Shown here one piece after another: positions 2,346-51,442 of a DNA stretch of 64,000 nucleotides. A model generated the notes under the pieces. The model worked only from the letters and a program-made list of their open reading frames with translations. It did no database searches and was not told the DNA's origin. The position numbers and the translations under genes are program-made. Source of the DNA: Terriglobia bacterium (GTDB lineage: Bacteria; Acidobacteriota; Terriglobia; 20CM-2-55-15). Position 1 is the stretch's first letter. Each line of letters opens with the position of its first letter. The DNA lies in contig CAXWPJ010000012.1 of the NCBI GenBank assembly GCA_963664115.2, positions 128,001 to 192,000 on the forward strand, written 5' to 3'.

Positions 2346-4676
2346 TCAGAACCGTAATTTCGTCTGAACCGTAAACTGGCGACCGGGACCCAGGGCAGTC
2401 CCTGAAAACACGCCGCTGAAATTGATCACGTTGAGGTGGTCCGTTGCGTTTCGAAGGTCGAACTGCATCGTTACGGACCGGCCCTGGTCGCTCCACAGCC
2501 CAAGGCCAACAGACAGGTCAAGGCTGAAGACTGACCGCAGACGGCTCCGCTCAAAATTTACGCGCTCAATGATTTCGGGTGGGATCGCCTCGGGGTTGTC
2601 ATCGCCGGCATCGTCATAATCGTCCTCGAACTCGACTGGCAGCCCGCTACCGTAGTGGATTCCGCTCGCGAACCAGACCCGCGCGTCCGGCTGCAGGCGG
2701 ACCAGGGCCGACAGTGTGTTGCGTTGATCCTGGCTGATTGAAAAACGCTCTCCGGGTGCCCGCAGTTCGTCTGCCCCGGAGCCTTCGATGAACAACCCCC
2801 CCGTAACCGGAGTTGTCGCATATCCAATCATATTCGAGTAACTGAGGGAGGAAGAAAGCCAGCCCCAGCCGGGAAGATCGATCCGAACCTCGGTCCCGGT
2901 GATCCGCGCGGTGTCGAAACTGATTGGGAACGACAAACCCGTGTTCAGGAAGACATCGTCGTCCATGTAGTTGCGGAATGTCCGCCAGTAGTGACTCACG
3001 TCCAGCCGGAACGTGTCGAGGAAAGGCTTGCTCAGACCAAGTTCAAAAAAATTACCGCGCGAGGCAGGAAGAGGGATGGATTTTTCGACCTCATCCACAC
3101 CCAGATCTGCGGCCCCACTGCTGAGCAAGAGGTTCTCTGCAGGCGGCGGCTGGAAAACACGGTCATATGCCGCTCGGAGTTGGAGATTTGCCGCTGGAAT
3201 CCAGTAGCTCAAAGCGATCCGTGGGCTGAGGGCGTCGGCTTCGATCAGAAAGTCGTAGTGGTCATAGCGGAGCCCGATATTTGCAGCAAAATTGCCCAGG
3301 CGAATGTGATCCTGAACGAAAAACGAAACCTCGTTGCTCTGCCTTTCGTCGCGAAAGTCCAGGTCGACGCCGGGATAGGCATCGGTTTCAGCAAAGCGAA
3401 ACATCTCGCGCACGCCGCTGACTCGAAGGTCGCCACCTAACTTCAGCGTATGGCGCTCGCCCTCAACGCTAAGGTCTGCGACCAATACCGACTCGCGGAA
3501 GCCCCGGTCCTGTTCAACCCGCACCGGTGTCGATTGGGGATTGCTCCAGAGTTCGGCTGTCAGATCGCGATGCATGAATCGAACTCCCCCCAGGATCTTT
3601 GCCGAAAGGATGCGCTGGTAGTGCACCTGCATTGAGGTCTCGCCTGAAAACCTGTCCTGCCGCTGTCCCCGGTCCTGTTGCACCAGGTCGTTGGGCACGA
3701 GAAACCGGCTTTCATCAGTCCGCACAGAGAACGCAATTCGATCCTGGCTGGTCAAATCATGGTCCAAGCGGAAGTTGATGCCCGCCGCCGTAGCTTTATT
3801 GGTGAAATTTTCGAGGGATGGTGGATCCAGGTAACGCGCTGTGTAACCGGCGTGGCTACCCAGAGAAATCGAGGTGGCTCCAGTCCGGAACTGGTACCGA
3901 ATGGATCCAGACCGGTTGTCGAAACTGCCGATTCGGGAATTGAACTCCACGCCGTGCCCGGGCGTGGCAACCCTGCGCGTGTCGAGAGCAATGACACCAC
4001 CGAGACGGCGACCGTATTCGGCGGGAATACCACTGGTCATCACGTTGACGGTTTCAATGTCAGCGATCTCGAATGCCGGAGCAAAACCGATTGAACGATT
4101 GTCGTACACCGGCATCCCGTCAACGACGTACTGGGTGTCGTACTCCGATCCCCTGGGATGCAGAACACCGTTGGCCTCCAGCAACCAACCGGGCAAGGTA
4201 GTCACAACATCCACCCCACTGCGGCCGAGTGTATTGCCCGCGATATCATCCAATTGCGTCCGGCCGATCCGCATCACCGGGGCGGGCTGCATCACGTCCA
4301 ACAAAGGCACAGAGTCGCTCACGGTGATCGCCGTCGTCGTCCCCGCCACTTCGAGCGTGATCGCAATATCGCGCGGCACCGGGGAACGGACTTCAACAGT
4401 GGTGCTGAACTCGGCAAATCCGCTCTGACGAACGGTGAGGCGGTATGCGCCTGGAGGCACCCGCAGCAACCGCGCCCGGCCCTCCAAGTCAGTCCGGGCC
4501 TGGGCTTCAAACAGTGGGCTCCGGCCCGTCAACTCGACTGCAGCGAGGGCGATCCCCAGTCCGTCCGAATCGCGGACCGCAATCCGCAGTTCGCCCTCCG
4601 TGACCTGGGCCACAGCAACGCTGGAACAGAACAGAATGAGTGAGAGGAGTTGGAGCCTAAAGCCAAATTCTTTCAT
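2346..4676 (-). CDS. TonB-dependent receptor with N-terminal carboxypeptidase-regulatory-like domain
   Basis: Signal peptide from MKEFGF, plug motif GIPAEYG, C-terminal Phe (TKLRF). Confidence 0.85.
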   Translation of the reverse strand: MKEFGFRLQLLSLILFCSSVAVAQVTEGELRIAVRDSDGLGIALAAVELTGRSPLFEAQARTDLEGRARLLRVPPGAYRLTVRQSGFAEFSTTVEVRSPVPRDIAITLEVAGTTTAITVSDSVPLLDVMQPAPVMRIGRTQLDDIAGNTLGRSGVDVVTTLPGWLLEANGVLHPRGSEYDTQYVVDGMPVYDNRSIGFAPAFEIADIETVNVMTSGIPAEYGRRLGGVIALDTRRVATPGHGVEFNSRIGSFDNRSGSIRYQFRTGATSISLGSHAGYTARYLDPPSLENFTNKATAAGINFRLDHDLTSQDRIAFSVRTDESRFLVPNDLVQQDRGQRQDRFSGETSMQVHYQRILSAKILGGVRFMHRDLTAELWSNPQSTPVRVEQDRGFRESVLVADLSVEGERHTLKLGGDLRVSGVREMFRFAETDAYPGVDLDFRDERQSNEVSFFVQDHIRLGNFAANIGLRYDHYDFLIEADALSPRIALSYWIPAANLQLRAAYDRVFQPPPAENLLLSSGAADLGVDEVEKSIPLPASRGNFFELGLSKPFLDTFRLDVSHYWRTFRNYMDDDVFLNTGLSFPISFDTARITGTEVRIDLPGWGWLSSSLSYSNMIGYATTPVTGGLFIEGSGADELRAPGERFSISQDQRNTLSALVRLQPDARVWFASGIHYGSGLPVEFEDDYDDAGDDNPEAIPPEIIERVNFERSRLRSVFSLDLSVGLGLWSDQGRSVTMQFDLRNATDHLNVINFSGVFSGTALGPGRQFTVQTKLRF

Positions 4677-5105
4677 CGCTGAGTGTCTTCGGTTCCTGCC
4701 GGCTATCATCAGCAGAAAGCCGCTTTCCGCTTTAAGGCTACACCAATGCTTTCCGAGAGCGAACGTCATCATTGCCCCAACCCTGTTGCTTACACTTAGA
4801 GCCTGGTGGCAGAGATGCAGTCTCGACCTGCCATCCCACTCCGGATACCTGCATCACGCTGAATGAAAACTATCGTTAGCTGAAGAAATCGGAAGGACTG
4901 CAGTTGCGCTCTATGAGCGCACGATAACCTTCTAAATCGTGCGGCCACTGACCGCACCTACCGATCAGTGTTCTTTAATCGATCCAGAACATAAGATTCT
5001 GGTGCCTCTGGTTTTTGCGGTAGTTGTGATCGGCAAAGTCTATTCCTGCAGCTCTGATCCTTAAGACAAGAACCTTGCACCTTCCGGGTGAAGTCCTGTT
5101 TCCCT

Positions 5106-6425
5106 CTATCCCGCCAAAAGAATCTGCAAATCCATCAGATTCGTCTGGGTCGGACCCGTCGTGATCAGGTCGCGCACAGACTGCAGGAAGGTGAACGAAT
5201 CGTTGTCCCGAAGAAACTTCGTCGGTTCCATATCCATCGCGATTGCGCGGGAACAGGTGTAAGGATCGACGATGCCGCCGGCTGCCGTAGTCGGCCCATC
5301 CGTGCCGTCTGTTGCCACGCTGGCGAAACAAACGGGTTTCCTCCATGACTGCATTTTCAAGGCCCACGCGAGCGCCATTTCCTGATTGCGGCCGCCGCGG
5401 CCCGCCCCTCTGACCGTTACCGTCGTCTCCCCCGCTGCGAGCACACATGCCGGGGGCGCGACCGGCTGCCCACTGGAACCTATCTCACGCGCAATGGACG
5501 CAAAGAAACGCCCGACGTCCCGCGCTTCGCCTTCGATCTCCGAGCTCAGCACCAGAGTGTTGAAACCCAATGCTCCGGCCTTGTTGGAAGCCGACCGAAG
5601 TAAAAGCCCGTTATTGGCTATGATGTGATTGCTGACGCGCTCGAAGAGCGGGTCACCCTTCTTGGGAGTTTCCGGAATCTCTCCATGGGCACCCCTCTCA
5701 AGGCGGCTCCTGACAGCAGTGGGAACCGGGATGCCATATTTTCCGACGATCTCTAAAGCATCGGCAAAGGTCGTCGTGTCCGGTGCGGTCGGACCTGAGG
5801 CGATGAAATCGAGCGGATCGCCGATCACGTCGGACATGATCAACGACACGACGCGAGCGGGAGCCGCCCAACGGAGTAACTGTCCACCTTTGATCGAGGA
5901 GAGATGTTTTCGAACTGCGTTAAGTTCGCGAATCGCAGCTCCCGCTCGAAGCAGATTGGATGTTACCTGTTGTTTTTCTCCCAGCGTGATTCCATCAGCC
6001 GGTGAAGGCAGGAGAGCCGAACCGCCACCGGAAAACAGGCACAAAACCACATCCTGCGGATTCAGGTCACGCAGGATTTCCCGCATTCCCTCCACGGCCA
6101 GTTCCCCGGATCGATCCGGTACAGGATGTCCCGCCTCGAATACCTGGATGTGATCGGTCGGCAGCCGGTGACCATATTTTGTTATCACAAGTCCAGCGGA
6201 TATGCTGTCGTTAAAAAGACGTTCGACAACCTGCGCCATGCCGGCGCCAGCCTTTCCTGCACCGATTACGACAAGACGCCCGTCGACTGCAAAGGTCTCA
6301 TCGCCGACCGCAAATCCGTCGCCGGTGACCCGGATCGCCCTCGGGATACAGACCTCCGGACGGGCGGCATCCAGGGCCGATTGCCAGATCTCCTGGGCCG
6401 CTTCACGTAACTGGGAAATCGTCAT
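5106..6425 (-). CDS. Glycerate 2-kinase / hydroxypyruvate reductase (MOFRL family)
   Basis: GAGKA, EAGHPVPD, SGGGSAL, GETTV, GGRNQE, GPTQTN motifs. Confidence 0.92.
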   Translation of the reverse strand: MTISQLREAAQEIWQSALDAARPEVCIPRAIRVTGDGFAVGDETFAVDGRLVVIGAGKAGAGMAQVVERLFNDSISAGLVITKYGHRLPTDHIQVFEAGHPVPDRSGELAVEGMREILRDLNPQDVVLCLFSGGGSALLPSPADGITLGEKQQVTSNLLRAGAAIRELNAVRKHLSSIKGGQLLRWAAPARVVSLIMSDVIGDPLDFIASGPTAPDTTTFADALEIVGKYGIPVPTAVRSRLERGAHGEIPETPKKGDPLFERVSNHIIANNGLLLRSASNKAGALGFNTLVLSSEIEGEARDVGRFFASIAREIGSSGQPVAPPACVLAAGETTVTVRGAGRGGRNQEMALAWALKMQSWRKPVCFASVATDGTDGPTTAAGGIVDPYTCSRAIAMDMEPTKFLRDNDSFTFLQSVRDLITTGPTQTNLMDLQILLAG

Positions 6426-21633: not shown

Positions 21634-21986
21634 TTCCGGCGCCCAAAATCTTTCGTTCGGGCTAATCTGAATCCAGCTTAGAAACATATGAGAACAGCGC
21701 ACCCCACACCCTAGGTGTCGGGCTCTTAACCTCCGATTGGTTTCCCGAGCCGGAGATCCCCGCCCTCTTCGCTATTGCATCCTATTAGCATCAGACACTT
21801 ACATCCATATTTTTCCGCCAATGGTTGCCTTGATCATCATCCACCTGTTGAAGTCACCCACCTTCGCGGACATTGAGATTTTCACCGAACGAAAACTCTA
21901 CTCTCACCTGCCATTCCTCGATTGGCCTCCAACTGGATGTATCTACCATTGTTTCAATGGATTACTGCGACACTCGAAGCTCGCCA

Positions 21987-22027
21987 ATTCTCAGTGTCCG
22001 ACAATGTCGTTAACAGGCGTTGAGAAT
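21987..22027 (+). repeat. dif-like palindromic site, copy 1 (5-bp spacer variant)
   Basis: ATTCTCA-GTGTCCGACAA-TGTCG-TTAACAGGCGT-TGAGAAT. Confidence 0.7.
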
Positions 22028-22102
22028 TTAATAGCGCCTAACTCACTCCTCTAGTATCTTTTACCGGGTTTTTCTCGGTTCTTTCAGCGACACACTATAA
22101 CG

Positions 22103-22220
22103 ATGGAATCTGGCACCAAACTGGGCCGCTACTAACTCCTGAGCCTCCTTGGTAAGGGTGAAATGGGTGAATTGTGGCGTGCTCGGGACACCAAGCTCGG
22201 GCGTAAAGTTGCCATCGAAG
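22103..22220 (+). pseudogene. Ser/Thr protein kinase 5' stub
   Basis: MESGTKLGRY*LLSLLGKGEMGELWRARDTKLGRKVAIE: subdomain I-II with an internal stop. Confidence 0.85.
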
Positions 22221-22397
22221 GTAAGCGTCCAAGCTAAACCGTGTAGCGCGGCAGTCAAGAAGGCGTCATTCTTGGCGGATGGAAGCGAATCGGAAGAAGC
22301 GGCCCCAGAAGGTCGAAGCAGGAACGGCAGCGGATCGTCGAGGAGTCGCTACAAAGCGGGAACATCGGTGGCCGTCGTGGCCCGGGCTCATGCGTAA
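22221..22397 (+). mobile_element. IS66-family left-end remnant
   Basis: Starts with GTAAGCGTCC (IS66-type IR); GTSVAVVARAH resembles the IS66 TnpA HTH. Confidence 0.55.
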
Positions 22398-22449
22398 GCT
22401 TCCCCATCTGAGAGGCATGTCATAAGTGGAGCTTTCTGGCAGTTGAGGT

Positions 22450-22512
22450 TCACCCGACGTTGGATGGGTCGCTTTTGCATCCGATCGTGCAGAAGGCCTT
22501 GAGGTCTATGTA
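22450..22512 (+). pseudogene. PD40/TolB-like repeat fragment of the kinase gene
   Basis: Translates SPDVGWVAFASDRAEGLEVYV. Confidence 0.55.
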
Positions 22513-22548
22513 AAATTAGATTCGATGAATTGAAGAGTGAACGAATCT

Positions 22549-24168
22549 ATGGCCAAAAAAGAACGAGTTTGTGTGATTGGAGCGGGCCTGTCGGGCCTCA
22601 TTGCACTGAAGGAATTGCTTAAAAAAGGACATGACGTCACTTGCTATGAAAAGGAACTTCGCGAAGGAGGAGTCTTTAACTTTCCAACTGGTGTAGCTTA
22701 CGACACAATGCGTCTTACCGTCTCCCAGCACTTCATGTGCTTCACTGGGATGCCTGCGCCACCGCAGGAAAAGCGAGAGCTCTGGACACGAAGACGGTAC
22801 GCCCAGTATTTGCAGTCCTTCGCAGAAAGATTCGACCTTTTTAGCTACATTCAATTTAGCACCGAAGTAAAGGCGATCGAACTGTGTCAGGGAGGCCAAG
22901 TTCGGGTTACTTGTCGTCATAGCACCGAGAGTTACGACCGAAAGTTTGACGCAGTCGCGATTTGTCAGGGTGCGTTTCGCGCAGACGCCCCGCGAATGCC
23001 AAACATCGATGGTCTGGATAACTTTCCAGGAAGAGTGGTTCACAGCGGAACTTACAACGGCCCGGAGTCCTTTAAGGGTATGCGCGTATTGTGCGTAGGA
23101 ATGGGCGAAACGGCCGCGGACATTACTCTGCACATTTCTGAAGTAGCTGCGAGCTGCACATTGAGTATGCGGACCTTTCCCGAAATAATAAAAAGATACC
23201 GGGGTCCTAGCCAACGCACCACCGACGTCGACTCTACGCGACTCTTTCACTGGATGTCGCCGGAACAGCGAAACGATTTCTACGCCTTCAAACGGAAGTT
23301 TAGGGATACGAGGAAGCTTAGCGATCACGATCGGTTGGTTTACGAATGGAATCGAAAATCAGGTGGACGTCGCTCCCTCCAAAAGAACGACGATTTCGTA
23401 GGCAACGTCATTAATGGACGAATTCAGGTGCTTGCTCCGTCGGAGCTTAAACGTATTGAAGGCAATACGGTGATCTTTGACGATCATTCAACATTGGAAG
23501 TGGACGCAATCGTATTCAGCACAGGATACGAGGAGAGCTCCATTCCCAAAAATTGGATCAAGGACGTCGAGATCTCTGATGTTCGTCAGCTATACAAGCA
23601 TGCATTCCATATAGACCTGGGGAGGCAGGTTGCTTTTTTTGGTTGGGCACGACCTCGGCAGGGAGGGGTTCCTGTAATCTCTGAATTGTTAGCCAGGTAT
23701 TTCGCACTACTTTGCAGCGGTGAACGAGAGTTGCCTGCGAAAAGTGAAATGAAACGTGTAATTGCTGAAGATTTTGCGCGCGAGGAGGAGTGGTTCGCCA
23801 ATTCAAAATCTACACGTACGCTAGTTCACTACACACGCTATTTAGATGATCTTGCCGAACTGATTGGATGTCTTCCCCATCTGGAAGATTATCTGAATGA
23901 TCCAGAGCTGCTCACACACCTGATGTGTTCATCAAACATTGGAATGAGCTATCGGTTACAGGGCCCAGACGCCTTCCCCGAGATACCCAGAGAGGCTTGC
24001 GTGTCGGCGCCCATCGCTGATCCATATGAAGCTATCGATAAGTTTTTGGACTACTCTCTTAGACAGAGACTGAATCTTGACCTGGCAAACCGGGTCGCTG
24101 AGATCATTCGCACATATCTGACCACACACACGACGGACATGCCTTCGACGGAAACTTGGGGAAGCTGA
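22549..24168 (+). CDS. Flavin-containing monooxygenase (FMO-like)
   Basis: GAGLSG FAD motif, FPGRVVHSGTY (FMO signature), GMGETA NADPH motif, STGY; visibly more AT-rich than flanks. Confidence 0.88.
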   Translation: MAKKERVCVIGAGLSGLIALKELLKKGHDVTCYEKELREGGVFNFPTGVAYDTMRLTVSQHFMCFTGMPAPPQEKRELWTRRRYAQYLQSFAERFDLFSYIQFSTEVKAIELCQGGQVRVTCRHSTESYDRKFDAVAICQGAFRADAPRMPNIDGLDNFPGRVVHSGTYNGPESFKGMRVLCVGMGETAADITLHISEVAASCTLSMRTFPEIIKRYRGPSQRTTDVDSTRLFHWMSPEQRNDFYAFKRKFRDTRKLSDHDRLVYEWNRKSGGRRSLQKNDDFVGNVINGRIQVLAPSELKRIEGNTVIFDDHSTLEVDAIVFSTGYEESSIPKNWIKDVEISDVRQLYKHAFHIDLGRQVAFFGWARPRQGGVPVISELLARYFALLCSGERELPAKSEMKRVIAEDFAREEEWFANSKSTRTLVHYTRYLDDLAELIGCLPHLEDYLNDPELLTHLMCSSNIGMSYRLQGPDAFPEIPREACVSAPIADPYEAIDKFLDYSLRQRLNLDLANRVAEIIRTYLTTHTTDMPSTETWGS

Positions 24169-24283
24169 GACTGGCCGGTGCCGTGATTTTCGAGGTCAAG
24201 TCCTGAGAAATCATCTTCTCGGACTGTACGTCGTCAGAATAATTCGGACAAAAAGACCATTTAGCTAAGAGACGGTTTTGAAG

Positions 24284-25629: not shown

Positions 25630-25819
25630 TCGATCCTCCTTCAGATCGTTCTGATTAGAAAAGTGTCTCTTAGTTTTTTAGGGTATTTCGTACGAAATGC
25701 TCTGACGGGCTACACTTCTCGGACCTTGAGAATTGATCCCACCACTTTCTGATAAGCCGAGTAACCTTCGATTGGGGCATATGGACGGTTTGCCGACTAT
25801 ACGGCAAGTGTAAGCTCGA

Positions 25820-26113: not shown

Positions 26114-26206
26114 TGAGTCATTATTTTCGATTGACGGTAACTTGGCTCCCTCTTAATATTGAGCAAGCATTTCAAATCGTTTGGGCGGAGCCTGAAGTAG
26201 CCCTTT

Positions 26207-26308
26207 GCGGATAAGCGGTTCAAACAGGGTCCGACACCTATTGCAGCGCTGTCGATGTCGCCGTATGGGCGTTATGTCAACCCACGCGCGGCCGAAGGCC
26301 GTCGCGCG
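26207..26308 (+). repeat. Left copy of ~100-bp inverted repeat containing two 11-6-11 sites
   Basis: Reverse complement matches 28426-28527; includes ATGTCGCCGTA-TGGGCG-TTATGTCAACC. Confidence 0.85.
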
Positions 26309-26654
26309 GATCTGCCTCTGATCCTGAACCTCTGTCCATCCACTGTCGGCACAGGAGCGTCAACGCGGTGAAGGCGGAAGCCAAGGAAGGACGGCGGGCC
26401 GAGGAACCACTGTACTTGAAACGTCGTGCATTAGCGTCCGCACGCATTGCGAAATCTAGAAAGTACTTACCTGAGTTCCAGTTACCCCCGTGGGTTCTTA
26501 CATGACATGCCCTCAGAGGTCGAACGACCCGTCGATCTGCGGCACCGCTCAAGATTTGTAAGATGCCTCATGTAAAGATGAATGACGCCACATTTTCATT
26601 GGCCCGCCTCAAGAACCTGAACGGCAGCCGACCGGGCCCAAGGACATAGACTCC

Positions 26655-28355
26655 ATGTCTCAAGACCTTCGCGCTGAGCTTTCAACGTCGTTAGCCGCAT
26701 CGGTCTTTCTTGCCTCGACATTGACCGTTTTTGGTCCGTATCACTCCTATGTAGCGAACTATACGGAATTGCCGGTACTCCTGAGGCACATCGTGCCGTA
26801 CCTTGCCGCACTATTTGGGCTCGTTGTCGTGGTGGTGTTGTCCGCTTTGTTTATCACGATCAAGCGCTCATGGCACCCTCGATTCGTCACCTTTGTATTT
26901 GCTCTGGCCCTGTTGATGTGGCTTCAAGGAAACATTTTTGTTTGGGATTACGGCGTCCTCAATGAAACCAACTTAAATTGGGAAAGATTCCGGATCATTG
27001 GCCTTGCCGAACTTGCCGCCTGGTATCTCGTGGCCAGGACGGCGTTCGTGTCGCTGGTTACGAGACAGAAGCTTATACGTGATCTCAGCATCGCCCTGAT
27101 CGTGGTTCAAAGCGTGGTGGTTTTGGCGGTTCAAATCCAGGGCGCACCGGATCCATATTGGCTCCGGACTGAGCTTGATACGGACCATGAATCAGCTTTC
27201 AGATATTCGCCGGATCAAAATGTGGTTCTCGTGGTTCTCGACGGCTTCCCATCCTTTGTATTTCAGCGCATTGTTGAAGAAGACCCAAGTTTCGGTGAAA
27301 TCTTTAATGGTTTTACCTACTTTCGGAACGCCGTCTCCGGCTATCCGTTTACGATGGGATCGGTTCCAAATATATTGACCGGACAGTTCTTTGATAACTC
27401 CCAACCGTACCCGGACTTCGTCCGTGCCGCTTATGTCAATGACTCCCTCCCTTCAACGTTATCCGAACACGGGTACCAGGCCGACGCGTTCGAATTTCAG
27501 CTCACGACCGTTTTCAATCCTGTGTTCTCGAACAGCGTTCCAAGGCAGTTTTCTTCTACTCGTCGCGTCGAAAGTGTTGATCTTCTGCTCAGGATCACGG
27601 CGTTCCGGTCCCTTCCACATTATTTGAAGAGCATGATTCCGATATTCGATTTGCAGAATCCGATGGGGTTGAGTGAGACTGAGGCGCCGCTCGACCTGAT
27701 TAATTCTGTTGTCGACCGACTGTACGTGGATGGGCCGGGACCCACCTTTAAGTTCTATCACCTCCTGATTCCCCACGAACCATTCAGCCTTAACGAAGAT
27801 CTTGAGCTTGAGTCATTAGAGAACGATACTCTCGGCTTCGTCAGACACTCGACTGCAGCACTCAGGCTGATGGAACGTTTGCTGGATGTCCTGCAGAACT
27901 CTGGTATCTATGACAACACGTTGTTGTTGATTGTGGGGGACCACGGCTACCCAACAGAACTGGGTCCGCCGCTTGATTCTCTGGAGCCCGCCATCGGTGA
28001 TTTGAATCCTGCGTTTTTTCGGGCGCTGCCTTTGGTTCTGGCAAAACCTTTAGGGTCCACCGGCCCGCTCAAAGTGTCGGACGCACCAGTGCACCTTATG
28101 GACATTCCCAGGACGGTGCTTACAGCAGTTGGAATTGAGAACGACGCTCCAGGGTTATCGATGTTTCAGTCTGACGTAGTAGACGGTCGAGTCCGCCGGT
28201 TTCTCCTGCACGACTGGGAACCGGGGACAACTGGAAGGCACCGCGAATGGGAGTCACGGCTTTATATGCCCCCACTCAGGGAGTTTTTCGTTGACGGGTT
28301 CAGCTGGTCGGGTGCTGCCTGGAGGAGTTCGGGGTCGACGTTTGAGCGTGATTGA
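26655..28355 (+). CDS. Membrane-anchored sulfatase/alkaline-phosphatase superfamily protein (LTA synthase / phosphoglycerol transferase-like)
   Basis: About 5 N-terminal TM segments, VLVVLDG, Thr in GYPFT, PHEP, YDNTLLLIVGDHG. Confidence 0.8.
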   Translation: MSQDLRAELSTSLAASVFLASTLTVFGPYHSYVANYTELPVLLRHIVPYLAALFGLVVVVVLSALFITIKRSWHPRFVTFVFALALLMWLQGNIFVWDYGVLNETNLNWERFRIIGLAELAAWYLVARTAFVSLVTRQKLIRDLSIALIVVQSVVVLAVQIQGAPDPYWLRTELDTDHESAFRYSPDQNVVLVVLDGFPSFVFQRIVEEDPSFGEIFNGFTYFRNAVSGYPFTMGSVPNILTGQFFDNSQPYPDFVRAAYVNDSLPSTLSEHGYQADAFEFQLTTVFNPVFSNSVPRQFSSTRRVESVDLLLRITAFRSLPHYLKSMIPIFDLQNPMGLSETEAPLDLINSVVDRLYVDGPGPTFKFYHLLIPHEPFSLNEDLELESLENDTLGFVRHSTAALRLMERLLDVLQNSGIYDNTLLLIVGDHGYPTELGPPLDSLEPAIGDLNPAFFRALPLVLAKPLGSTGPLKVSDAPVHLMDIPRTVLTAVGIENDAPGLSMFQSDVVDGRVRRFLLHDWEPGTTGRHREWESRLYMPPLREFFVDGFSWSGAAWRSSGSTFERD

Positions 28356-28425
28356 ACTATCGGTGCTCTTCTAAACCAAGCAACAACTTGGTGCCACAGA
28401 ACCAGGCAAAGCCGGGGCAGTGACT

Positions 28426-28527
28426 CGCGCGACGGCCTGCGGCCGCGCGCAGGTTGACATAACACCCATACGGCGACCATGCCCGTGCTGCAATAGATCT
28501 CAGACACTGCTTAAACCGCTTATCCGC
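28426..28527 (-). repeat. Right copy of ~100-bp inverted repeat
   Basis: GGTTGACATAA-CACCCA-TACGGCGACCA and GACACTGCTTA-AACCGC-TTATCCGCCAC. Confidence 0.85.
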
Positions 28528-28729
28528 CACCTGACGTCAGCCCTCTGCAGGCATTGCCAGCACGCAGGAATTTCTATTGACGTTGGACAGCCGGGGTCAC
28601 TTGGCCGTATTAACGTCAGTTTTGTATCGGAGATGGTCCGGCACCGACAGTGACAAAAAATGATGCCGGGGCATGTCGGATAGAATGGTTTGAAGTGAGG
28701 CGCAGGCGCGGCCGGGAACGAGAAGACCT

Positions 28730-28877
28730 ATGGGTTTTCAATCCATGGATTGGAGGCTGAATCGGGGAGACGCAGTGATGGTGGGGGGTGGTTGTAGCGG
28801 AAGAATGGGTTTTCAATCCATGGATTGGAGGCTGAATCGGGGAGACGCAGTGATGGTGGGGGGTGGTTGTAGCGGAA
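28730..28877. repeat. Tandem duplication, 75-bp period
   Basis: ATGGGTTTTCAATCC...GTAGCGGAA starts at 28730 and 28805. Confidence 0.92.
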
Positions 28878-29016
28878 AATCACTGTCGATCGCCCGAGTG
28901 GGGTGGGTTGGATATAGCGAAAGGGCACTTGAGCACGCGTGTTTTTGGCGTCTGGACACACTTCGGCGATGCAGTCTGGACGACCGCGTTGGGCTGGAAT
29001 TGTTGAGTGTCGATGG

Positions 29017-30201
29017 CTACGCACTATCCTGAATTGGAACCTCCTTTGATTCGAGAGCGGCGAGCTGTGCCGCGGTTAATCGCTCGACCAGACGCATCGG
29101 TCCCCGGCAGATCGGACACGGTGCCGGTGGGGTAGCACCCGCCTCGGACTCCGGCTCGGTGATGGACTCCTGACCTAAGAGGTGCCGACAGAGTTCCAGC
29201 ATCGTCTTGCGTTTCCGATTTGCCATCCATCCGTAGTACCGGATGCGGGGAAAGCCTTTCGGTAAGACATGCAGGAGGAATCGACGGAGGAACTCTTCGG
29301 GTTGGAGTGTCATTGTTCGTGGACGGCCATTGTGGCGATAGTCCTTCCAGCGGAATGTAACGCCGGATTGGTTGACATCGAGGATGCGATGATTCGAGAT
29401 GGCCACCCGATGGGTATAGCGGGCCAGGTACTGAAGGACGTGTTGGGGTCCGCCGAATGGTTCTTTGGCGTACACCACCCAGTTCCGATCCTTCAGATCG
29501 TCGAGGAACCGCTCGAAGGTGGATTCGGTGGCCAGTTCCAGACACTCCCCATGGAAAACGAGCGTCTTGTTTCCGAAGGCTTCGGCTAAACCGTCGAGAA
29601 ACTTTTCTCTGAAAACGTAGCTGAGCTTCTGGACCGGGAGGAAGAAGTCGGTCCGGGAGGAGTGGATCCACCGGTCGTGATCCGGGGACAGTCCGCCACC
29701 GGGAACCACACAGTGGATATGGGGATGGCGTTGCAGGGTTTGTCCCCAGGTATGCAGGATGCTGAGGAATCCGATCTCGCCGCCCAGATACCTGGGGTTT
29801 CGGGCCACTTCGATCAGCGCCGCCGCACTGGTTCGGAACAGAAGCGCATAGAGCACCTTCTTGTTCTGCCAGATCAATGGGATCAACTGATGGGGCAGGC
29901 TGAAGACCAGATGGAAGTATCCGATCGGTAGCAGTTCCTGTTGCCGTTTCTCGACCCAGGTGTTCCGCGCATTGGTCTGGCACTTCGGGCAGTGGCGGTT
30001 CCGGCACGAGTGGTAGACCAGCGTTTGGTGGCCACAGTGGTCGCATCGTTTCCGGTTCCCGCCCAGTGCGGCGGTCCGGCAATGGGTAATCGCGTTGAGG
30101 ACCTTGACCTGGGGCCAGGCCAGCGCTTTCAAATACCGTTGTCGGAATCGGTCTCCGACGATGCGAATCACGTCAGCCACCTCAAAGGGTGGCCGGCTCA
30201 C
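29017..30201 (-). CDS. IS91-family (Y2 HUH) transposase
   Basis: Zn-binding SCRNRHCPKCQ, HTWG, HPHIH (HUH), YLARY. Confidence 0.92.
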   Translation of the reverse strand: MSRPPFEVADVIRIVGDRFRQRYLKALAWPQVKVLNAITHCRTAALGGNRKRCDHCGHQTLVYHSCRNRHCPKCQTNARNTWVEKRQQELLPIGYFHLVFSLPHQLIPLIWQNKKVLYALLFRTSAAALIEVARNPRYLGGEIGFLSILHTWGQTLQRHPHIHCVVPGGGLSPDHDRWIHSSRTDFFLPVQKLSYVFREKFLDGLAEAFGNKTLVFHGECLELATESTFERFLDDLKDRNWVVYAKEPFGGPQHVLQYLARYTHRVAISNHRILDVNQSGVTFRWKDYRHNGRPRTMTLQPEEFLRRFLLHVLPKGFPRIRYYGWMANRKRKTMLELCRHLLGQESITEPESEAGATPPAPCPICRGPMRLVERLTAAQLAALESKEVPIQDSA

Positions 30202-31079
30202 TTCTTTGGATCCTTAACCACAGGTGAAAGCTTCAACTGATCCAGAGGATTGCGCGCGGTTCGAAGATGGCGCCGGGACAGTTGCAGGTAGAGCGTGGTA
30301 TCGCTGAGCCGACTGTGTCCCATCAAGAGCTGGATCGTGCGCAAGTCGGTCCCGGACTCTAGCAGGTGGGTCGCGAAGCTGTGCCGTAGCGTGTGCGGAC
30401 CGATCCTCTGGGTCAGACCCGCACGCTGGGCGGCCCCATGAACGGCATGCCAGACCACCTTGTCCGAGATCGGAGCATCCGTGCCCCGGTGTCCTGCACT
30501 GCTGTGAAACAGATAGACCTCGGGCTTTTTCAATAACCAGTACCCCCGTAACGCTTCAAGCAGATTGCGACTCAACGGGACATCCCGGTCCCGACGCCCT
30601 TTCCCGTCGCGGATATGCACCAGCATCCGTTCACTGTCGATGTCGGCCACCTTCAACACGGCGGCTTCGGCCCGTCGCATCCCGGTCCCGTAGAGCACCA
30701 TCAGGATGGCCCGGTGCATCGGACTCAATGCGGCTTGGATCAACCGGCGGACTTCAGACGGACCCAGGATCGTGGGTAGTTTCCGCGCACTCTTGGGCAT
30801 GGGCAGATCATCCAGTTCCAGATCCGCACGTCGCAGCAGCACCTTCTTGTAAAGGAATCGTATCGCCGAGGTCCGCATCCCGACCGTACTCGCCGCCAGC
30901 TTCTTTTCGGTCAGTAAGTACAGCTGAAAACGCCGTACCTCCTCGGCTCCCATCAAGGCCGGAGACTTGCCGAAGTAATTCGCGAATTGTTCGACTGCCA
31001 GAATGTAGCCACGACTCGTGGCCGGGGAATAGTTCCGTCGCTGGAGTTCCTCCAGCATCCGTTCTCGTAGTTGGGTCAT
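30198..31079 (-). CDS. Tyrosine recombinase/integrase
   Basis: YGTGMR, GKGRRDR, HTLRHSFATHLLE, LMGH, TTLY. Confidence 0.92.
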   Translation of the reverse strand: MTQLRERMLEELQRRNYSPATSRGYILAVEQFANYFGKSPALMGAEEVRRFQLYLLTEKKLAASTVGMRTSAIRFLYKKVLLRRADLELDDLPMPKSARKLPTILGPSEVRRLIQAALSPMHRAILMVLYGTGMRRAEAAVLKVADIDSERMLVHIRDGKGRRDRDVPLSRNLLEALRGYWLLKKPEVYLFHSSAGHRGTDAPISDKVVWHAVHGAAQRAGLTQRIGPHTLRHSFATHLLESGTDLRTIQLLMGHSRLSDTTLYLQLSRRHLRTARNPLDQLKLSPVVKDPKK

Positions 31080-31187
31080 AAGACACCTCCTTATGACCGC
31101 TACTTTATGGGACAGACTCTATCTGCTGTACGCCGACTCCGAGCGCCTGCGGCTTAGTTCAAACCGGCTATACGAAGAACCCTCGCC

Positions 31188-31227
31188 ATTCTCAACGCCT
31201 GATAAATCATTGTCGGACACTGAGAAT
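31188..31227 (-). repeat. dif-like palindromic site (4-bp spacer variant)
   Basis: Reverse complement reads ATTCTCA-GTGTCCGACAA-TGAT-TTATCAGGCGT-TGAGAAT. Confidence 0.7.
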
Positions 31228-31328
31228 TGGCCGTGACCGAACAGGATCACAACTTCCTTGCTTATAACCCCTACCTGTAGTTAGATTTATCCAACTTTTT
31301 CACGTTTCGTTTCGGTAAACAATAATTT

Positions 31329-33657: not shown

Positions 33658-33892
33658 GACGCCACTATCTCATAGGACGGCACTGAACCGACTCTTTCAA
33701 TCTGGCTTTGAAAATCTCGATAAAGAAACATGAAAGCAAGAGGTCGCGCGACGGCCTGCGGCCGCGACGATTCGTCCTCGGCAACGCCGAATGGTAGAGC
33801 TATTCACTTCCGCAGGATAGGTAAACCCTTGGCGACTTATCGTTAGTAATCCGGCGTTATTTCAGTTCCTAGGCACTTCTCCCCGAAGTTCA

Positions 33893-33927
33893 ACGTCCGA
33901 GAAGATGATTTGTCAGGACTTGACCTC
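33893..33927 (+). repeat. dif-like palindromic site (intact 11-6-11)
   Basis: ACGTCCGAGAA-GATGAT-TTGTCAGGACT-TGACCTC. Confidence 0.8.
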
Positions 33928-33932
33928 CAAAA

Positions 33933-34030
33933 TCAGGGAACTGGCACCCTCTCCTTCAGTTCTTCAAACCAATTCAGGACGATGTTGATTCCGGGGGCGG
34001 GCGGCCTCGCCAGTACCGGTCTTCCGTCTA
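33933..34030 (-). pseudogene. Kinase 3' stub
   Basis: INIVLNWFEELKERVPVP* on the minus strand. Confidence 0.8.
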
Positions 34031-36362: not shown

Positions 36363-36881
36363 TGGAAACCTCTTGATTGGCTGGACTGGTTGATGCTGCC
36401 ACATGGCCCCGATTCAATGAGACTACAGGCAGGATTTCAGGTCAATCAAAGAATCACATGGAAGCATAGGCGACTTCACATTCTTGTGGAATTTCTACAG
36501 TCCGATTCAGGCTCACTCGGAGAAGGCTTGTGGGCTTAGTGAAAGGTGTTCGGACAAGCCAGTTCAGAAACCCTCTACGGGCAGGAGGCGCCGCAGCTCT
36601 TCGTCCAGACCGAATCCAGATCGACCGGGGCTATTGTTTTTCCTATGCCCTCTCGGTTTCAACCGGATAAAGTATGTGGCGATGATTTCGATCCGGTTTG
36701 GGCCGTTCTAGGGCCCGAACGGATTGCTTTCTACTCTTGGCCGACTATCGGAAACGGGCGAGACGCGCACGCCGCGGCTCGCGAGGCCAGAGTAGGGCTT
36801 TGGAGGGCCGCGTAGTGCCCGCGGCGGTTCGGGGCGAAGCCCCGTGTAGTTTATTAAGTTCGGCTCACGAGCGAGGTTTGC

Positions 36882-38288: not shown

Positions 38289-38382
38289 ACTCCCGAAAAA
38301 CGCCGTTGTCGGAAGCTGAGAAACCCCAGTAATTTGCCCAATTCTCAAGTGACGCGAAGATGATTTCTCAGGACCTGAGAAT
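38289..38382. repeat. Two back-to-back dif-like sites
   Basis: Minus strand TTTCTCA-GCTTCCGACAA-CGGCGT-TTTTCGGGAGT (38289-38323); plus strand ATTCTCA-AGTGACGCGAA-GATGAT-TTCTCAGGACC-TGAGAAT (38341-38382). Confidence 0.7.
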
Positions 38383-38545
38383 CATTTTCGACTGGCCAGA
38401 CACAAACTTAGAGCAGTTCATTGCCAGATGTTGCGGACACGTTCTTTAGCGTCGAGGGAAGCAGTCTTGCCAGCTTGATCTATCTGAATCCACACGCCCT
38501 CAGATCGGACCGGCGATGCTAAGTTGACAGTGCCTTCCTGACATC

Positions 38546-38980: not shown

Positions 38981-39268
38981 TTGAGGCCCTCCAGCCTGTG
39001 ATTGAAACGCCCCGGATAGAAAGAATAAGAGGCCCTTTCCTGCTAGAAATGGGGTGAGTCTGTGGCAATTCTTTCGCTCCAGCAAGGGAAATGCAAGGAA
39101 AATACGGTCCGCAGCACGAACTGAAGAACCAAGCATCGGTTGAGGTAACGAAAAGTGATGTCGATGGTGGTCTCCTCAGGGCTGGGAGGCGCCGCGCTGT
39201 GGCACCTCGTTGAGTGACCTAACCCACAAGAATTGGACCGAGAACAGTCCAATCACAAGGAGAGAGAA

Positions 39269-39556: not shown

Positions 39557-39789
39557 CGTGCCTGACTCACAAGGAGGCACCAACCCACTGGCGGGATTCT
39601 CAACGTCCGAGAAGATGATCTATGAAAGGGGATGTCAAGAGAAACAGCTCCCCGATGGCCGGCCAGACGGACACTTTTGTCGTGACAGCCAGCCCCTCTA
39701 CCGTTATGTGAAGCCCTGGTTCCGGCAATCCGCAGCGAAATCGTACATCTTTAAGACGGTCGATTCAGAAACTGAACAGCATATGGGAC

Positions 39790-46452: not shown

Positions 46453-46527
46453 GTTCAAAGTGTGTCGCTGAAAAAACCGAGTAAATCTCGGTAAAAGATA
46501 CTAGAGGAGTGAGTTAGGCGCTATCAA

Positions 46528-46569
46528 ATTCTCAAGTCCCTGCAAATGACCTTGGCGGACAGTCAGATA
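46528..46569 (-). repeat. dif-like palindromic site (11-6-11)
   Basis: Reverse complement reads CTGTCCGCCAA-GGTCAT-TTGCAGGGACT-TGAGAAT. Confidence 0.7.
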
Positions 46570-48133: not shown

Positions 48134-48444
48134 GTTCGGTGTTCCGCACACTCCAGACGGTACTGTCAACTTGGGCTCGCTGAAGTTGTTACAGGTCGTT
48201 CAGTCAGAACTTCGGCGTGACGTTCCGTCTTCATTACCAATGAACTACGTCCGTTAGATCAGGTGCTGCGGCGATGAAACAAAGCAATGAAGCTGGCACC
48301 CGCAAACGTGACAGTTGCCCCGCATAACCTCACCACTCCACCAACTCCTTCTCCGTAAGCTCCTGGAAGCACCTCGGACACTTCGCAGCCGCTGACAGGA
48401 GGCCACGCCCAATTCTTTGAAGTTTTCAGGAATTACAGATGTCA

Positions 48445-48472
48445 ACTTCCGACAAGATGATTTATCAGACTA
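48445..48472 (+). repeat. dif-like palindromic site (11-6-11)
   Basis: ACTTCCGACAA-GATGAT-TTATCAGACTA. Confidence 0.75.
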
Positions 48473-50647: not shown

Positions 50648-51442
50648 GGTATTGTCAACTTACGGTGCGAAGGTCAAACTTGTGCCGAATGAGTGCAGTT
50701 CGATCAGGCTGCCGTGATCGCTTCCCAAGTCGCAAAAGAACGTGACCGCAGCATCCTGTGGTGAACCGCTTTTAGTCTGTGCCTGGACAACCGGAAAAGA
50801 TTCAGAACGACGCCATGCACCGAAAGGAAGAGTTGAGCTTGTCGTGGCGACTTGAACCGTCGCATCTGTCGTTCGCGTTGTCGGGTCGGTTGGTGTGAGA
50901 CTTCGGCTCGATTGTTCGCGTACTGTTCGGTGTCATGATTCACCGAAGGCATGATCGTCCGGAGTGCCGCACTGTAACTCTTCAACTTGTCTGTGACCAG
51001 GCGGAACGGAACCTTTCCTTGCCCCTTCAAGAGCTTGCGAAAGAACCGCTCCGCTGCATGACGGTTGCGTCGCGACTGGACGAGGATGTCGATCACGTCG
51101 CCGTCTTGATCCACGGCACGCCACAAATACTGCCGCTGACCATTGATGGTCACGAACACTTCGTCCAGAAACCATGTATCTCCGAGGCGACCTTGTCGTC
51201 GTCTGAGACGCCTGACATATTCGAGACCGAACCGAGCGCACCACCGGCGGATCGTTTCGTAGGACACTACGATTCCTCGTTCGGCAAGAAGATCCTCAAC
51301 ATTCCGGAGGCTGAGGCCGAATTTGTAGTAGAGCCAGACGGCATGACTGATGATTTCGCGTGGGTAACGGTGCCCGTAATAGAGGGATCGCGTGGATTTC
51401 ATCACGCAAGTCTGCCAGTAACGGGCTCAAGTTGACAGTCAG
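50648..51442 (-). mobile_element. IS6-family insertion sequence
   Basis: IR GGTATTGTCAACTT at left and AAGTTGACAG at right (right end degenerate). Confidence 0.85.
50704..51405 (-). CDS. IS6-family DDE transposase
   Basis: WFLDEVF, YLWRAVD, VTDKL, NNRAEVSHQP. Confidence 0.92.
   Translation of the reverse strand: MMKSTRSLYYGHRYPREIISHAVWLYYKFGLSLRNVEDLLAERGIVVSYETIRRWCARFGLEYVRRLRRRQGRLGDTWFLDEVFVTINGQRQYLWRAVDQDGDVIDILVQSRRNRHAAERFFRKLLKGQGKVPFRLVTDKLKSYSAALRTIMPSVNHDTEQYANNRAEVSHQPTRQRERQMRRFKSPRQAQLFLSVHGVVLNLFRLSRHRLKAVHHRMLRSRSFATWEAITAA

Follow-up and report, generated by a model that had tools for sequence, protein, structure and literature searches.

In the Terriglobia genome under study (G000; 4.9 Mb), a gene of the sulfatase superfamily lies between two inverted repeats of about 100 nt, and the question that the locus raises is whether this pair of repeats is a recombination module dedicated to the gene or has another origin. 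A first-pass annotation of the 64,000-nt stretch analysed (contig C12, positions 128001-192000; hereafter 'the window') proposed that the pair is a non-autonomous, possibly invertible Xer-type module, that each repeat contains an outer and an inner 11-6-11 site followed by a GC hairpin, and that the gene encodes an enzyme that modifies the cell envelope.

Organization of the locus

A repeat finder and alignment place the two arms at 26207-26308 and 28426-28527 (102 nt each, 84% complementary, with 2117 nt between them), an inverted pair far above chance (E = 4.5e-26) and in agreement with the annotation of diverged inverted copies. The left copy reads on the minus strand, with its tip at 26207 and its hairpin toward the gene; the right copy reads on the plus strand, with its tip at 28511-28527. 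The GC hairpin annotated at the inner end of each copy is present, at 26285-26308, where it forms the inner boundary of the left copy and is likely a cryptic terminator, and at 28426-28449. The inner 11-6-11 site, with TTATGTCAACC, is also present, as a dif-like site at 26255-26282 (plus strand; XerC-like arm outward, XerD-like arm inward) and at 28452-28479; of the 22 arm bases of the host dif, the left site shares 18 and the right site 16. The outer site does not hold up as an 11-6-11 site: it matches the dif arms at 11-12/22 bases, which is background.

The interval between the arms contains a single long ORF, at 26655-28355, that matches the Pfam family Sulfatase (PF00884; E = 7.5e-15). 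As annotated, no transposase was found inside 26207-28527, and the reading of the locus as non-autonomous is borne out; an IS3/IS481-like element, an integrase+IS91 element and an IS1380 lie outside the arms. No target duplication was found around the pair, and no flanking duplication of 2-12 nt. We rejected a MITE or composite transposon: paired inverted repeats with target duplication do not recur as a unit. The 36 nt directly outside the right copy (28528-28563, plus strand) are common to two other repeat copies, at C2:94013 and C10:407603, that bear other cargo, and a sequence match identifies a hairpin-only remnant of the same 102-nt repeat at 33745-33767 (plus strand). No Rfam family was found in 20000-50000 of the window.

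The repeat belongs to a dispersed family

An iterated nhmmer profile detects 38 copies of the repeat in the genome, and the arms belong to this family rather than forming a dedicated pair. At 83% identity, the two window copies are only the 4th and 6th best matches of one another among 24. Most copies are solitary or in direct arrangement, and the 14 neighbour pairs less than 10 kb apart comprise 10 direct, 3 inward and 1 outward. The copies are scattered, and a replichore strand bias was rejected (22/38 copies). Mean pairwise identity among 25 near-full copies is 75%, a divergence that marks the copies in this genome as old. Of 34 other genomes in the same taxonomic family, 17 carry the repeat, against 0 of 26 from other families in the class. 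No matches were found in plasmid or phage collections, and a metagenome scan gave one partial locus from 602 candidates; read runs X1-X5, each with a small word share, were left out of habitat inference, and coverage of the cargo gene in X1 was patchy.

Two local explanations of the repeat were discarded. The adjacent integrase+IS91 element (28.6-31.2 kb; seven identical copies, two of them near a repeat copy) is not its parent, the ends of that element falling outside the repeat, and an outward sigma-70 promoter does not explain the TTGACA in the arm of the window copies, in which no -10 element was found, though it may do so in other clades. Folding z-scores for the whole repeat, -0.5 to -1.3, are not unusual. 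RNAalifold finds no two-sided changes, and with a three-helix model the covariation of the hairpins does not exceed that of shuffles, so that the case for the hairpins is one of sequence symmetry only.

The repeat is very probably the ori end of an ISCR-like element

Long genes of the Y2_Tnp class (PF04986) repeatedly end beside a copy of the repeat. Among 21 transposase 3' ends that we aligned, at loci that we chose, many of them after the adjacency had been noticed, 14 run into the repeat about 100 nt past the stop codon, five into a sister version of it and two into another end. After the stop codon the hairpin comes first and the tip last, and every alignment breaks sharply at the tip. Full elements, found in related Terriglobia, are about 2.1 kb long and end in the 102-nt repeat; at the 5' side they all start some 460-495 nt ahead of the coding stretch that was matched, with a boundary unlike the repeat. 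Close relatives of the transposase come from Terriglobia (Acidobacteriota) MAGs, and a separate protein search recovers the same ori end in diverged relatives.

The tip motif forms a continuous series, via other Acidobacteriota elements, to ISCR1, ISVsa3 and a third ISCR, and is in register with the ends of these three plasmid ISCRs (9-12/17 identical). The tip of the left copy, placed by alignment at 26207-26223 (minus strand), is identical at 12/17 positions to the ISCR ori tip in locus L092 and at 10/17 to that of ISCR1, of which a 22-mer is named oriIS in the relevant part of PMC13023784. Because the tip aligns in register with ISCR ends, what had been annotated as the outer site is the terminal motif of oriIS. 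No cognate transposase was found in the genome under study. Its sole ISCR-type gene, of a sister lineage, is 56% identical to the cognate transposase and has a different ori end with two orphans of its own. The sister-lineage transposase is 41-45% identical to the HUH transposases of ISCR1 and ISCR2/ISVsa3, and both it and the cognate transposase have Zn-finger, HUH and single-Tyr RYxxR motifs. In a scan that covered the sister-lineage protein, it scores 390.8 bits on the model for ISCR clade Ia (NF052416), under the cut-off of 925, and is also under the cut-off of NF033538.

Sections of PMC13181058 and bioRxiv 2025.11.21.689736 define the IS91/ISCR family by an ori end and a ter end, by palindromes close to the ends, by one-ended transposition and by the lack of a target duplication. 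A passage of bioRxiv 2025.01.22.634252, citing Yuan 2024, describes the capture of a gene by two sequential oriIS. The Terriglobia element has an Rcr-homologous HUH transposase in relatives, an oriIS 3' of the gene with a conserved tip and subterminal palindromes, and dissimilar ends without terminal inverted repeats or target duplication; it shares the position of the ori end, the tip motif in register and the lack of terminal inverted repeats and target duplication with ISCR1 and ISCR2/ISVsa3. Unlike IS91, IS801 and IS1294, which have a conserved target tetranucleotide next to oriIS, it has no conserved target word outside the tip, and the first four bases of the tip itself are mostly element-encoded (104/125). 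It differs from the ISCRs in persisting mostly as 102-nt orphans and in carrying a dif-like site and a GC hairpin, both absent from the three ISCR ends compared. We conclude that the repeat is very probably the terminal 102 nt of an ISCR-like oriIS end, orphaned without its transposase gene and with a capture junction, and not a Xer-type module. The end of a known IS family is what the first-pass annotation had named as evidence against its own reading, yet here it comes without the terminal inverted repeat or target duplication named with it. Counting against the conclusion are the missing cognate transposase in G000 and the age of its copies, the lack of a target word outside the tip, hairpins without covariation above that of shuffles, the way in which the 21 loci were chosen, and the absence of empty sites among the mini-elements described below.

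The cargo gene and the capture junction

The cargo gene (plus strand) encodes a membrane-anchored, LtaS-like protein of 566 aa in the alkaline-phosphatase/sulfatase superfamily. Hydrophobic helices lie at its N terminus, Cys is lacking altogether, a Thr occupies the nucleophile position, and the best PDB match is LtaS (E = 8e-4). The annotation stands as to superfamily (PF00884), but the formylglycine sulfatase motif Cys/Ser-x-Pro-x-Arg is absent, which rules out a true sulfatase. The protein is probably an envelope-modifying enzyme, as had been proposed, and likely a phosphoglycerol/phosphoethanolamine-type transferase acting on a surface glycan.

Matches to the cargo occur in 14 of 60 relatives, with a close ortholog (78% identical) only in G002, where it lies in a glycan cluster among flippase, family-4 glycosyltransferase (GT4), amidotransferase and aminotransferase (DegT) genes, beside pilin genes; no repeat was found within 50 kb of this ortholog. 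The genome under study has a matching cluster without a cargo ortholog. DNA homology between the cargo and G002 does not end with the stop codon but extends into the adjoining downstream GT4 gene, breaking off at the right hairpin, where the relevant strand reads GCG|G. The segment at 28388-28425 (plus strand) is a 5' stub of this glycosyltransferase gene, codons ~9-22. Its codon ~22 is where the right copy is joined, and in G002 this gene comes directly after the cargo ortholog. The junction at the right hairpin is, as its sequence reads, a capture junction and the best evidence of capture; the right copy likely pulled the cargo gene out of a polysaccharide gene cluster. Upstream of the cargo, at 26407-26502 (plus strand), lies a decayed GT4-like fragment equivalent to codons ~29-61 of that glycosyltransferase gene in G002 (18/32 residues identical), either a circular permutation or a paralog.

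Boundaries of the mini-elements

Inner ends of the orphans, or mini-elements, were placed on a profile of the full 3' end, on which the hairpin ends at position 102. Among tip-bearing copies, 15 of 31 in G000, 17 of 28 in its relative G006 and 17 of 22 in its relative G016 have their inner end at 99-105. The 41 of 71 distinct mini-elements with a clean hairpin end have G (27) or A (14) as the next base and random sequence thereafter, and a second class of stops, at about 136 nt, likewise follows GCGG. In 7 of 9 cases with a site-free homolog, the purine after the hairpin equals the base present in the host. The outer flank of a copy bears no relation to its inner flank, and the junctions often interrupt a gene; several tips lie inside fragments of Ser/Thr-kinase genes. 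The pattern suggests that copies inserted and that deletions or moves from one end came afterwards. A search for empty sites, with outer and inner flank contiguous elsewhere, lends no support to the simple insertion of a free mini-element: none was found for 78 full mini-elements (overlapping loci counted), the power being low because few flanks have homologs. Linkage of the repeat to its flanks is mixed, the hairpin side tending to go with the inner flank and the tip side with the outer flank, as is consistent with crossovers inside the repeat.

The closest parallel is IS801, which, according to the portions of Bardaji et al. (2011; PMC3189936) that treat it, yields right-end minis of 229, 360 and 679 nt; that element also moves adjacent DNA (PMC3189936 and PMC6354349, in the sections concerned). 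Both elements give fixed-length ori-side fragments with preferred internal stops, and the Terriglobia mini-elements may, by analogy, resemble those of IS801 in being mobilisable in trans and serving as recombination substrates, properties described in part of PMC3189936. The Terriglobia stop coincides with a hairpin, whereas the IS801 stops do not; the Terriglobia mini-element is also shorter, outnumbers or outlives its parent, lacks a target word of the CTTG/GTTC type and forms one-way arrays of 100 kb.

One-way arrays in relatives

In G006, 28 same-strand copies span 110 kb, and in G016, 22 span 88 kb, each array with one opposite sister copy. The two arrays are largely syntenic, with one segment start moved and four or more whole segments present in only one genome on each side (including A13, A25 and A26 in one numbering and B01-B03, B08 and B11 in the other). 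Orthologous array copies differ by 6-16% per quarter, while the segments are mostly 93-99% and the flanks of the copies mostly 93-100% alike; the arrays have their own, lineage-specific consensus. The 48 segments are 0.4-15 kb long, are often multi-gene, carry genes in both orientations (99 vs 66) and are cut mid-gene, and their cargo, judged from 82 of 124 called ORFs, is a mixture of accessory genes and other IS. No match to the tyrosine recombinase family PF00589 was found in the G006 array, and no intact cognate transposase was found beside either array.

The dif-like inner site

The true dif of the genome under study is at C2:108145 and has equivalents in 5/5 relatives. The inward-facing XerD-like arm is real and has the geometry of a D module, and the spacers of the two window sites differ by one base. 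The mean XerD-arm match is 9.4/11 in 25 copies of G000 and 7.1-7.4/11 in the largest arrays, in which the arm is altered at two bases. The XerC arm is degenerate (6.8/11). After near-duplicates and 16 rows without a recognisable tip had been dropped, 27 non-redundant ori ends were left, of which 10 are dif-like at p<0.05 (uncorrected; 200 shuffles). In each of the 10 the XerD arm points inward and the protein is at least 50% identical to the query; no dif-like site was found in the three plasmid ISCRs or the more distant ori ends. Because the dif-like site recurs in one clade of elements and in a single orientation, the inner arm is real and inherited.

Alternative origins of the repeats

According to the first-pass proposal, host XerCD would recombine the inverted dif-like sites as a pdif D module and thereby invert or exchange the sulfatase-like gene. 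The relevant part of PMC13141974 describes pdif modules as alternating and recombining at the spacer, and an inverted pair with XerD arms inward as a D module. The window sites fit that description in their 18/22 and 16/22 arm matches, inward arms and near-identical spacers, as the family does in its XerD-arm match in G000 and the constant orientation across ori ends, and they share with the pdif modules of Acinetobacter plasmids a 28-bp 11-6-11 site resembling host dif; but the Terriglobia site forms part of a longer ori end, of 102 nt, whose junctions fall at the tip and the hairpin, outside the site, instead of clustering in the 6-bp spacer. Furthermore, only 3 of the 14 close pairs face inward, there is no C/D alternation, the XerC inner bases are degenerate, and the array copies number 22-28 despite having lost two XerD-arm bases. 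The one informative pair with a common outer flank, C12:331345/544038, ceases to match at position 45, short of the XerC arm, and no half-repeat was found at the true dif. Contigs of three read runs bridge the right repeat, and one just bridges the left, all with the orientation of the reference. Among the joints listed for these contigs, which lose rare forms and whose listing lacks three joints, none at the repeats lies on the opposite strand. We consider the pdif reading, judged on these sequence comparisons, very improbable. Location near dif was also rejected as an explanation, the dif of G006 being at 3.9 kb and the array at 2.19-2.30 Mb. Passive debris, in which full elements in hypervariable islands were trimmed by deletions and the ends captured nothing, is improbable too, if somewhat less so: 21 of 38 copies have kinase fragments or a member of another repeat family no more than 1 kb away (9.8% for random positions), longer remnants of variable length exist, and part of PMC3189936 argues that most genomic IS801 fragments stem from reorganisation, but random deletion does not produce a single prevailing inner breakpoint with a purine next to it in 41/41 cases, nor a junction inside the native neighbour gene of the cargo.

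The arrays raise a further alternative, that the ori end is the programmed site of an HUH-driven cassette system, whose transposase would excise circles of ori end plus cargo and re-insert them into one-way arrays, the window pair being a scattered by-product. The same-strand runs over 110 and 88 kb, the segments gained, lost or moved between G006 and G016, the lineage consensus with repeats more diverged than most of their flanks, the mixed accessory cargo and the lack of a tyrosine recombinase in the array all point this way. The size range, multi-gene content, dual orientation and mid-gene cuts of the segments, and their many other IS, do not; nor do the missing intact transposase beside either array and the scattered copies without strand bias in G000, and RecA recombination between 100-nt direct repeats accounts equally well for gain, loss and homogenisation. 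The arrays likely shuffle in the manner of gene cassettes, yet RecA acting on the repeats may be enough to explain this, and we regard the cassette system as possible but doubtful. Chromosomal super-integrons (attC arrays) are, likewise, long one-way arrays of lineage-specific repeats between variable accessory DNA, but the Terriglobia array has no integrase or attI, its segments do not each consist of one promoterless gene in a uniform orientation, and its repeat is not an end-to-end palindrome. An integron cassette array was rejected on the lack of an adjoining integrase and of single genes in a single orientation.

A model for the mini-elements

The preferred reading, an orphaned ISCR-like ori end, suggests the following model. 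The HUH transposase would start at the tip and, likely, stop early at the GC hairpin, leaving mini-ends of 102 nt (less often about 136 nt) joined to host DNA at CG|purine. In a later round, read-through of the hairpin would carry the adjoining inner DNA, in this case the sulfatase-like gene, to another site. The left copy would be a second, independent insertion, and the inverted pair would therefore be one of several arrangements and not a functional pair. Recombination between copies would homogenise and reshuffle the arrays. The dif-like site would be an inherited part of the ori end, at which host XerCD perhaps resolves dimers of circular intermediates, and would be dispensable for the spread of the mini-elements. 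With transposase supplied in trans, the mini-elements are likely to act as one-ended gene-capture handles and as short blocks of homology.

Significance

ISCRs are tied to the spread of resistance genes, and their transposition and gene capture still lack experimental proof; statements in PMC9376610 and PMC6218425 have it that transposition has not been demonstrated for any ISCR. The repeat family offers a natural 102-nt minimal substrate, and relatives have the cognate transposase intact; the preferred stop has been mapped and the capture junction can be traced, so that the question of capture by ISCRs is directly testable. If the preferred reading is true, the repeats give these bacteria a route for exchanging surface-glycan and accessory genes. 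Among CC-licensed PMC articles and bioRxiv preprints, we found no paper describing a dif-like site in an ISCR ori end or 100-kb arrays of orphan ends. A broader reading, which we think unlikely, is that an ISCR-type HUH transposase and the 102-nt ori mini-end together form an integron-like capture system, a rolling-circle and Xer-exploiting hybrid in which mini-elements would be planted beside genes, lifted as single-stranded circles and re-inserted at existing ends into one-way arrays, the built-in dif-like site recruiting XerCD to resolve or integrate the circles.

Ori ends and associated sequences in the window and in related genomes

The repeat, a 102-nt orphan mini-oriIS of an ISCR-like element, has counterparts next to ISCR-like transposase genes in related genomes. 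At L064 of genome G004 (positions 3824-6411), an intact cognate transposase gene lies between two inward-facing copies of the repeat, the left of which is located outside the ISCR-like element, ~440 nt beyond its 5' boundary. At three loci of genomes G006 and G016 (L071, L072, and L084), a sister ori end, longer by about 10 nt, flanks ISCR-like genes, intact or broken, on both sides as direct repeats, yielding units of ~3.5 kb. In a shorter ori-end clade (L153, L154, L159, L171, and L172), at least four ends have a TAGAAT-like hexamer 19 nt after the TTGAC within the XerD-like arm; this pair may be a promoter that points outward and overlaps with the dif-like dyad.

The ISCR tip class, the terminal oriIS motif, is also matched exactly in the window at 36634-36650 (+ strand) and 39012-39028 (− strand), and the match at 39028 is similar to the end of the ISCR-like element of the genome itself. 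Another inverted pair, 38379-38486 and 50696-50803 (108 nt, 73% alike), is not related to the repeat.

Near-copies of dif and a second 11-6-11 family

Near-copies of dif are present in the genome at three loci (C2:111541, C2:750709, and C9:952936), where 18-19 of 22 arm bases are retained, the XerC arm and spacer are intact, and the XerD arm is altered, the pattern that integrated elements exploiting Xer would be expected to show.

Besides the repeat, the genome carries a second 11-6-11 family, palindromic and with a XerC-like arm, at ~237 loci genome-wide, including, in the window, 21977-22032, 24186-24224, 25715-25736, 31186-31237, 33889-33933, 38331-38388, 39591-39623, 46524-46563, and 48440-48468. 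Genome-wide, Ser/Thr-kinase C-terminal fragments are found upstream of these loci (140 matches) and N-terminal fragments downstream (74 matches). At 22098-24224, an FMO-like monooxygenase gene has a kinase N-terminal fragment on one side and, on the other, the C-terminal end of a kinase together with a palindrome, an arrangement that looks as if the middle of a kinase gene had been swapped for cargo. An integrase-plus-IS91-transposase element at 28610-31165, of which there are seven identical copies, has in its window copy a 75-nt tandem duplication (28730-28877). Of six copies with differing flanks, at least five have a palindromic 11-6-11 locus at their left end. The palindromic family may constitute a separate site-specific cassette system.
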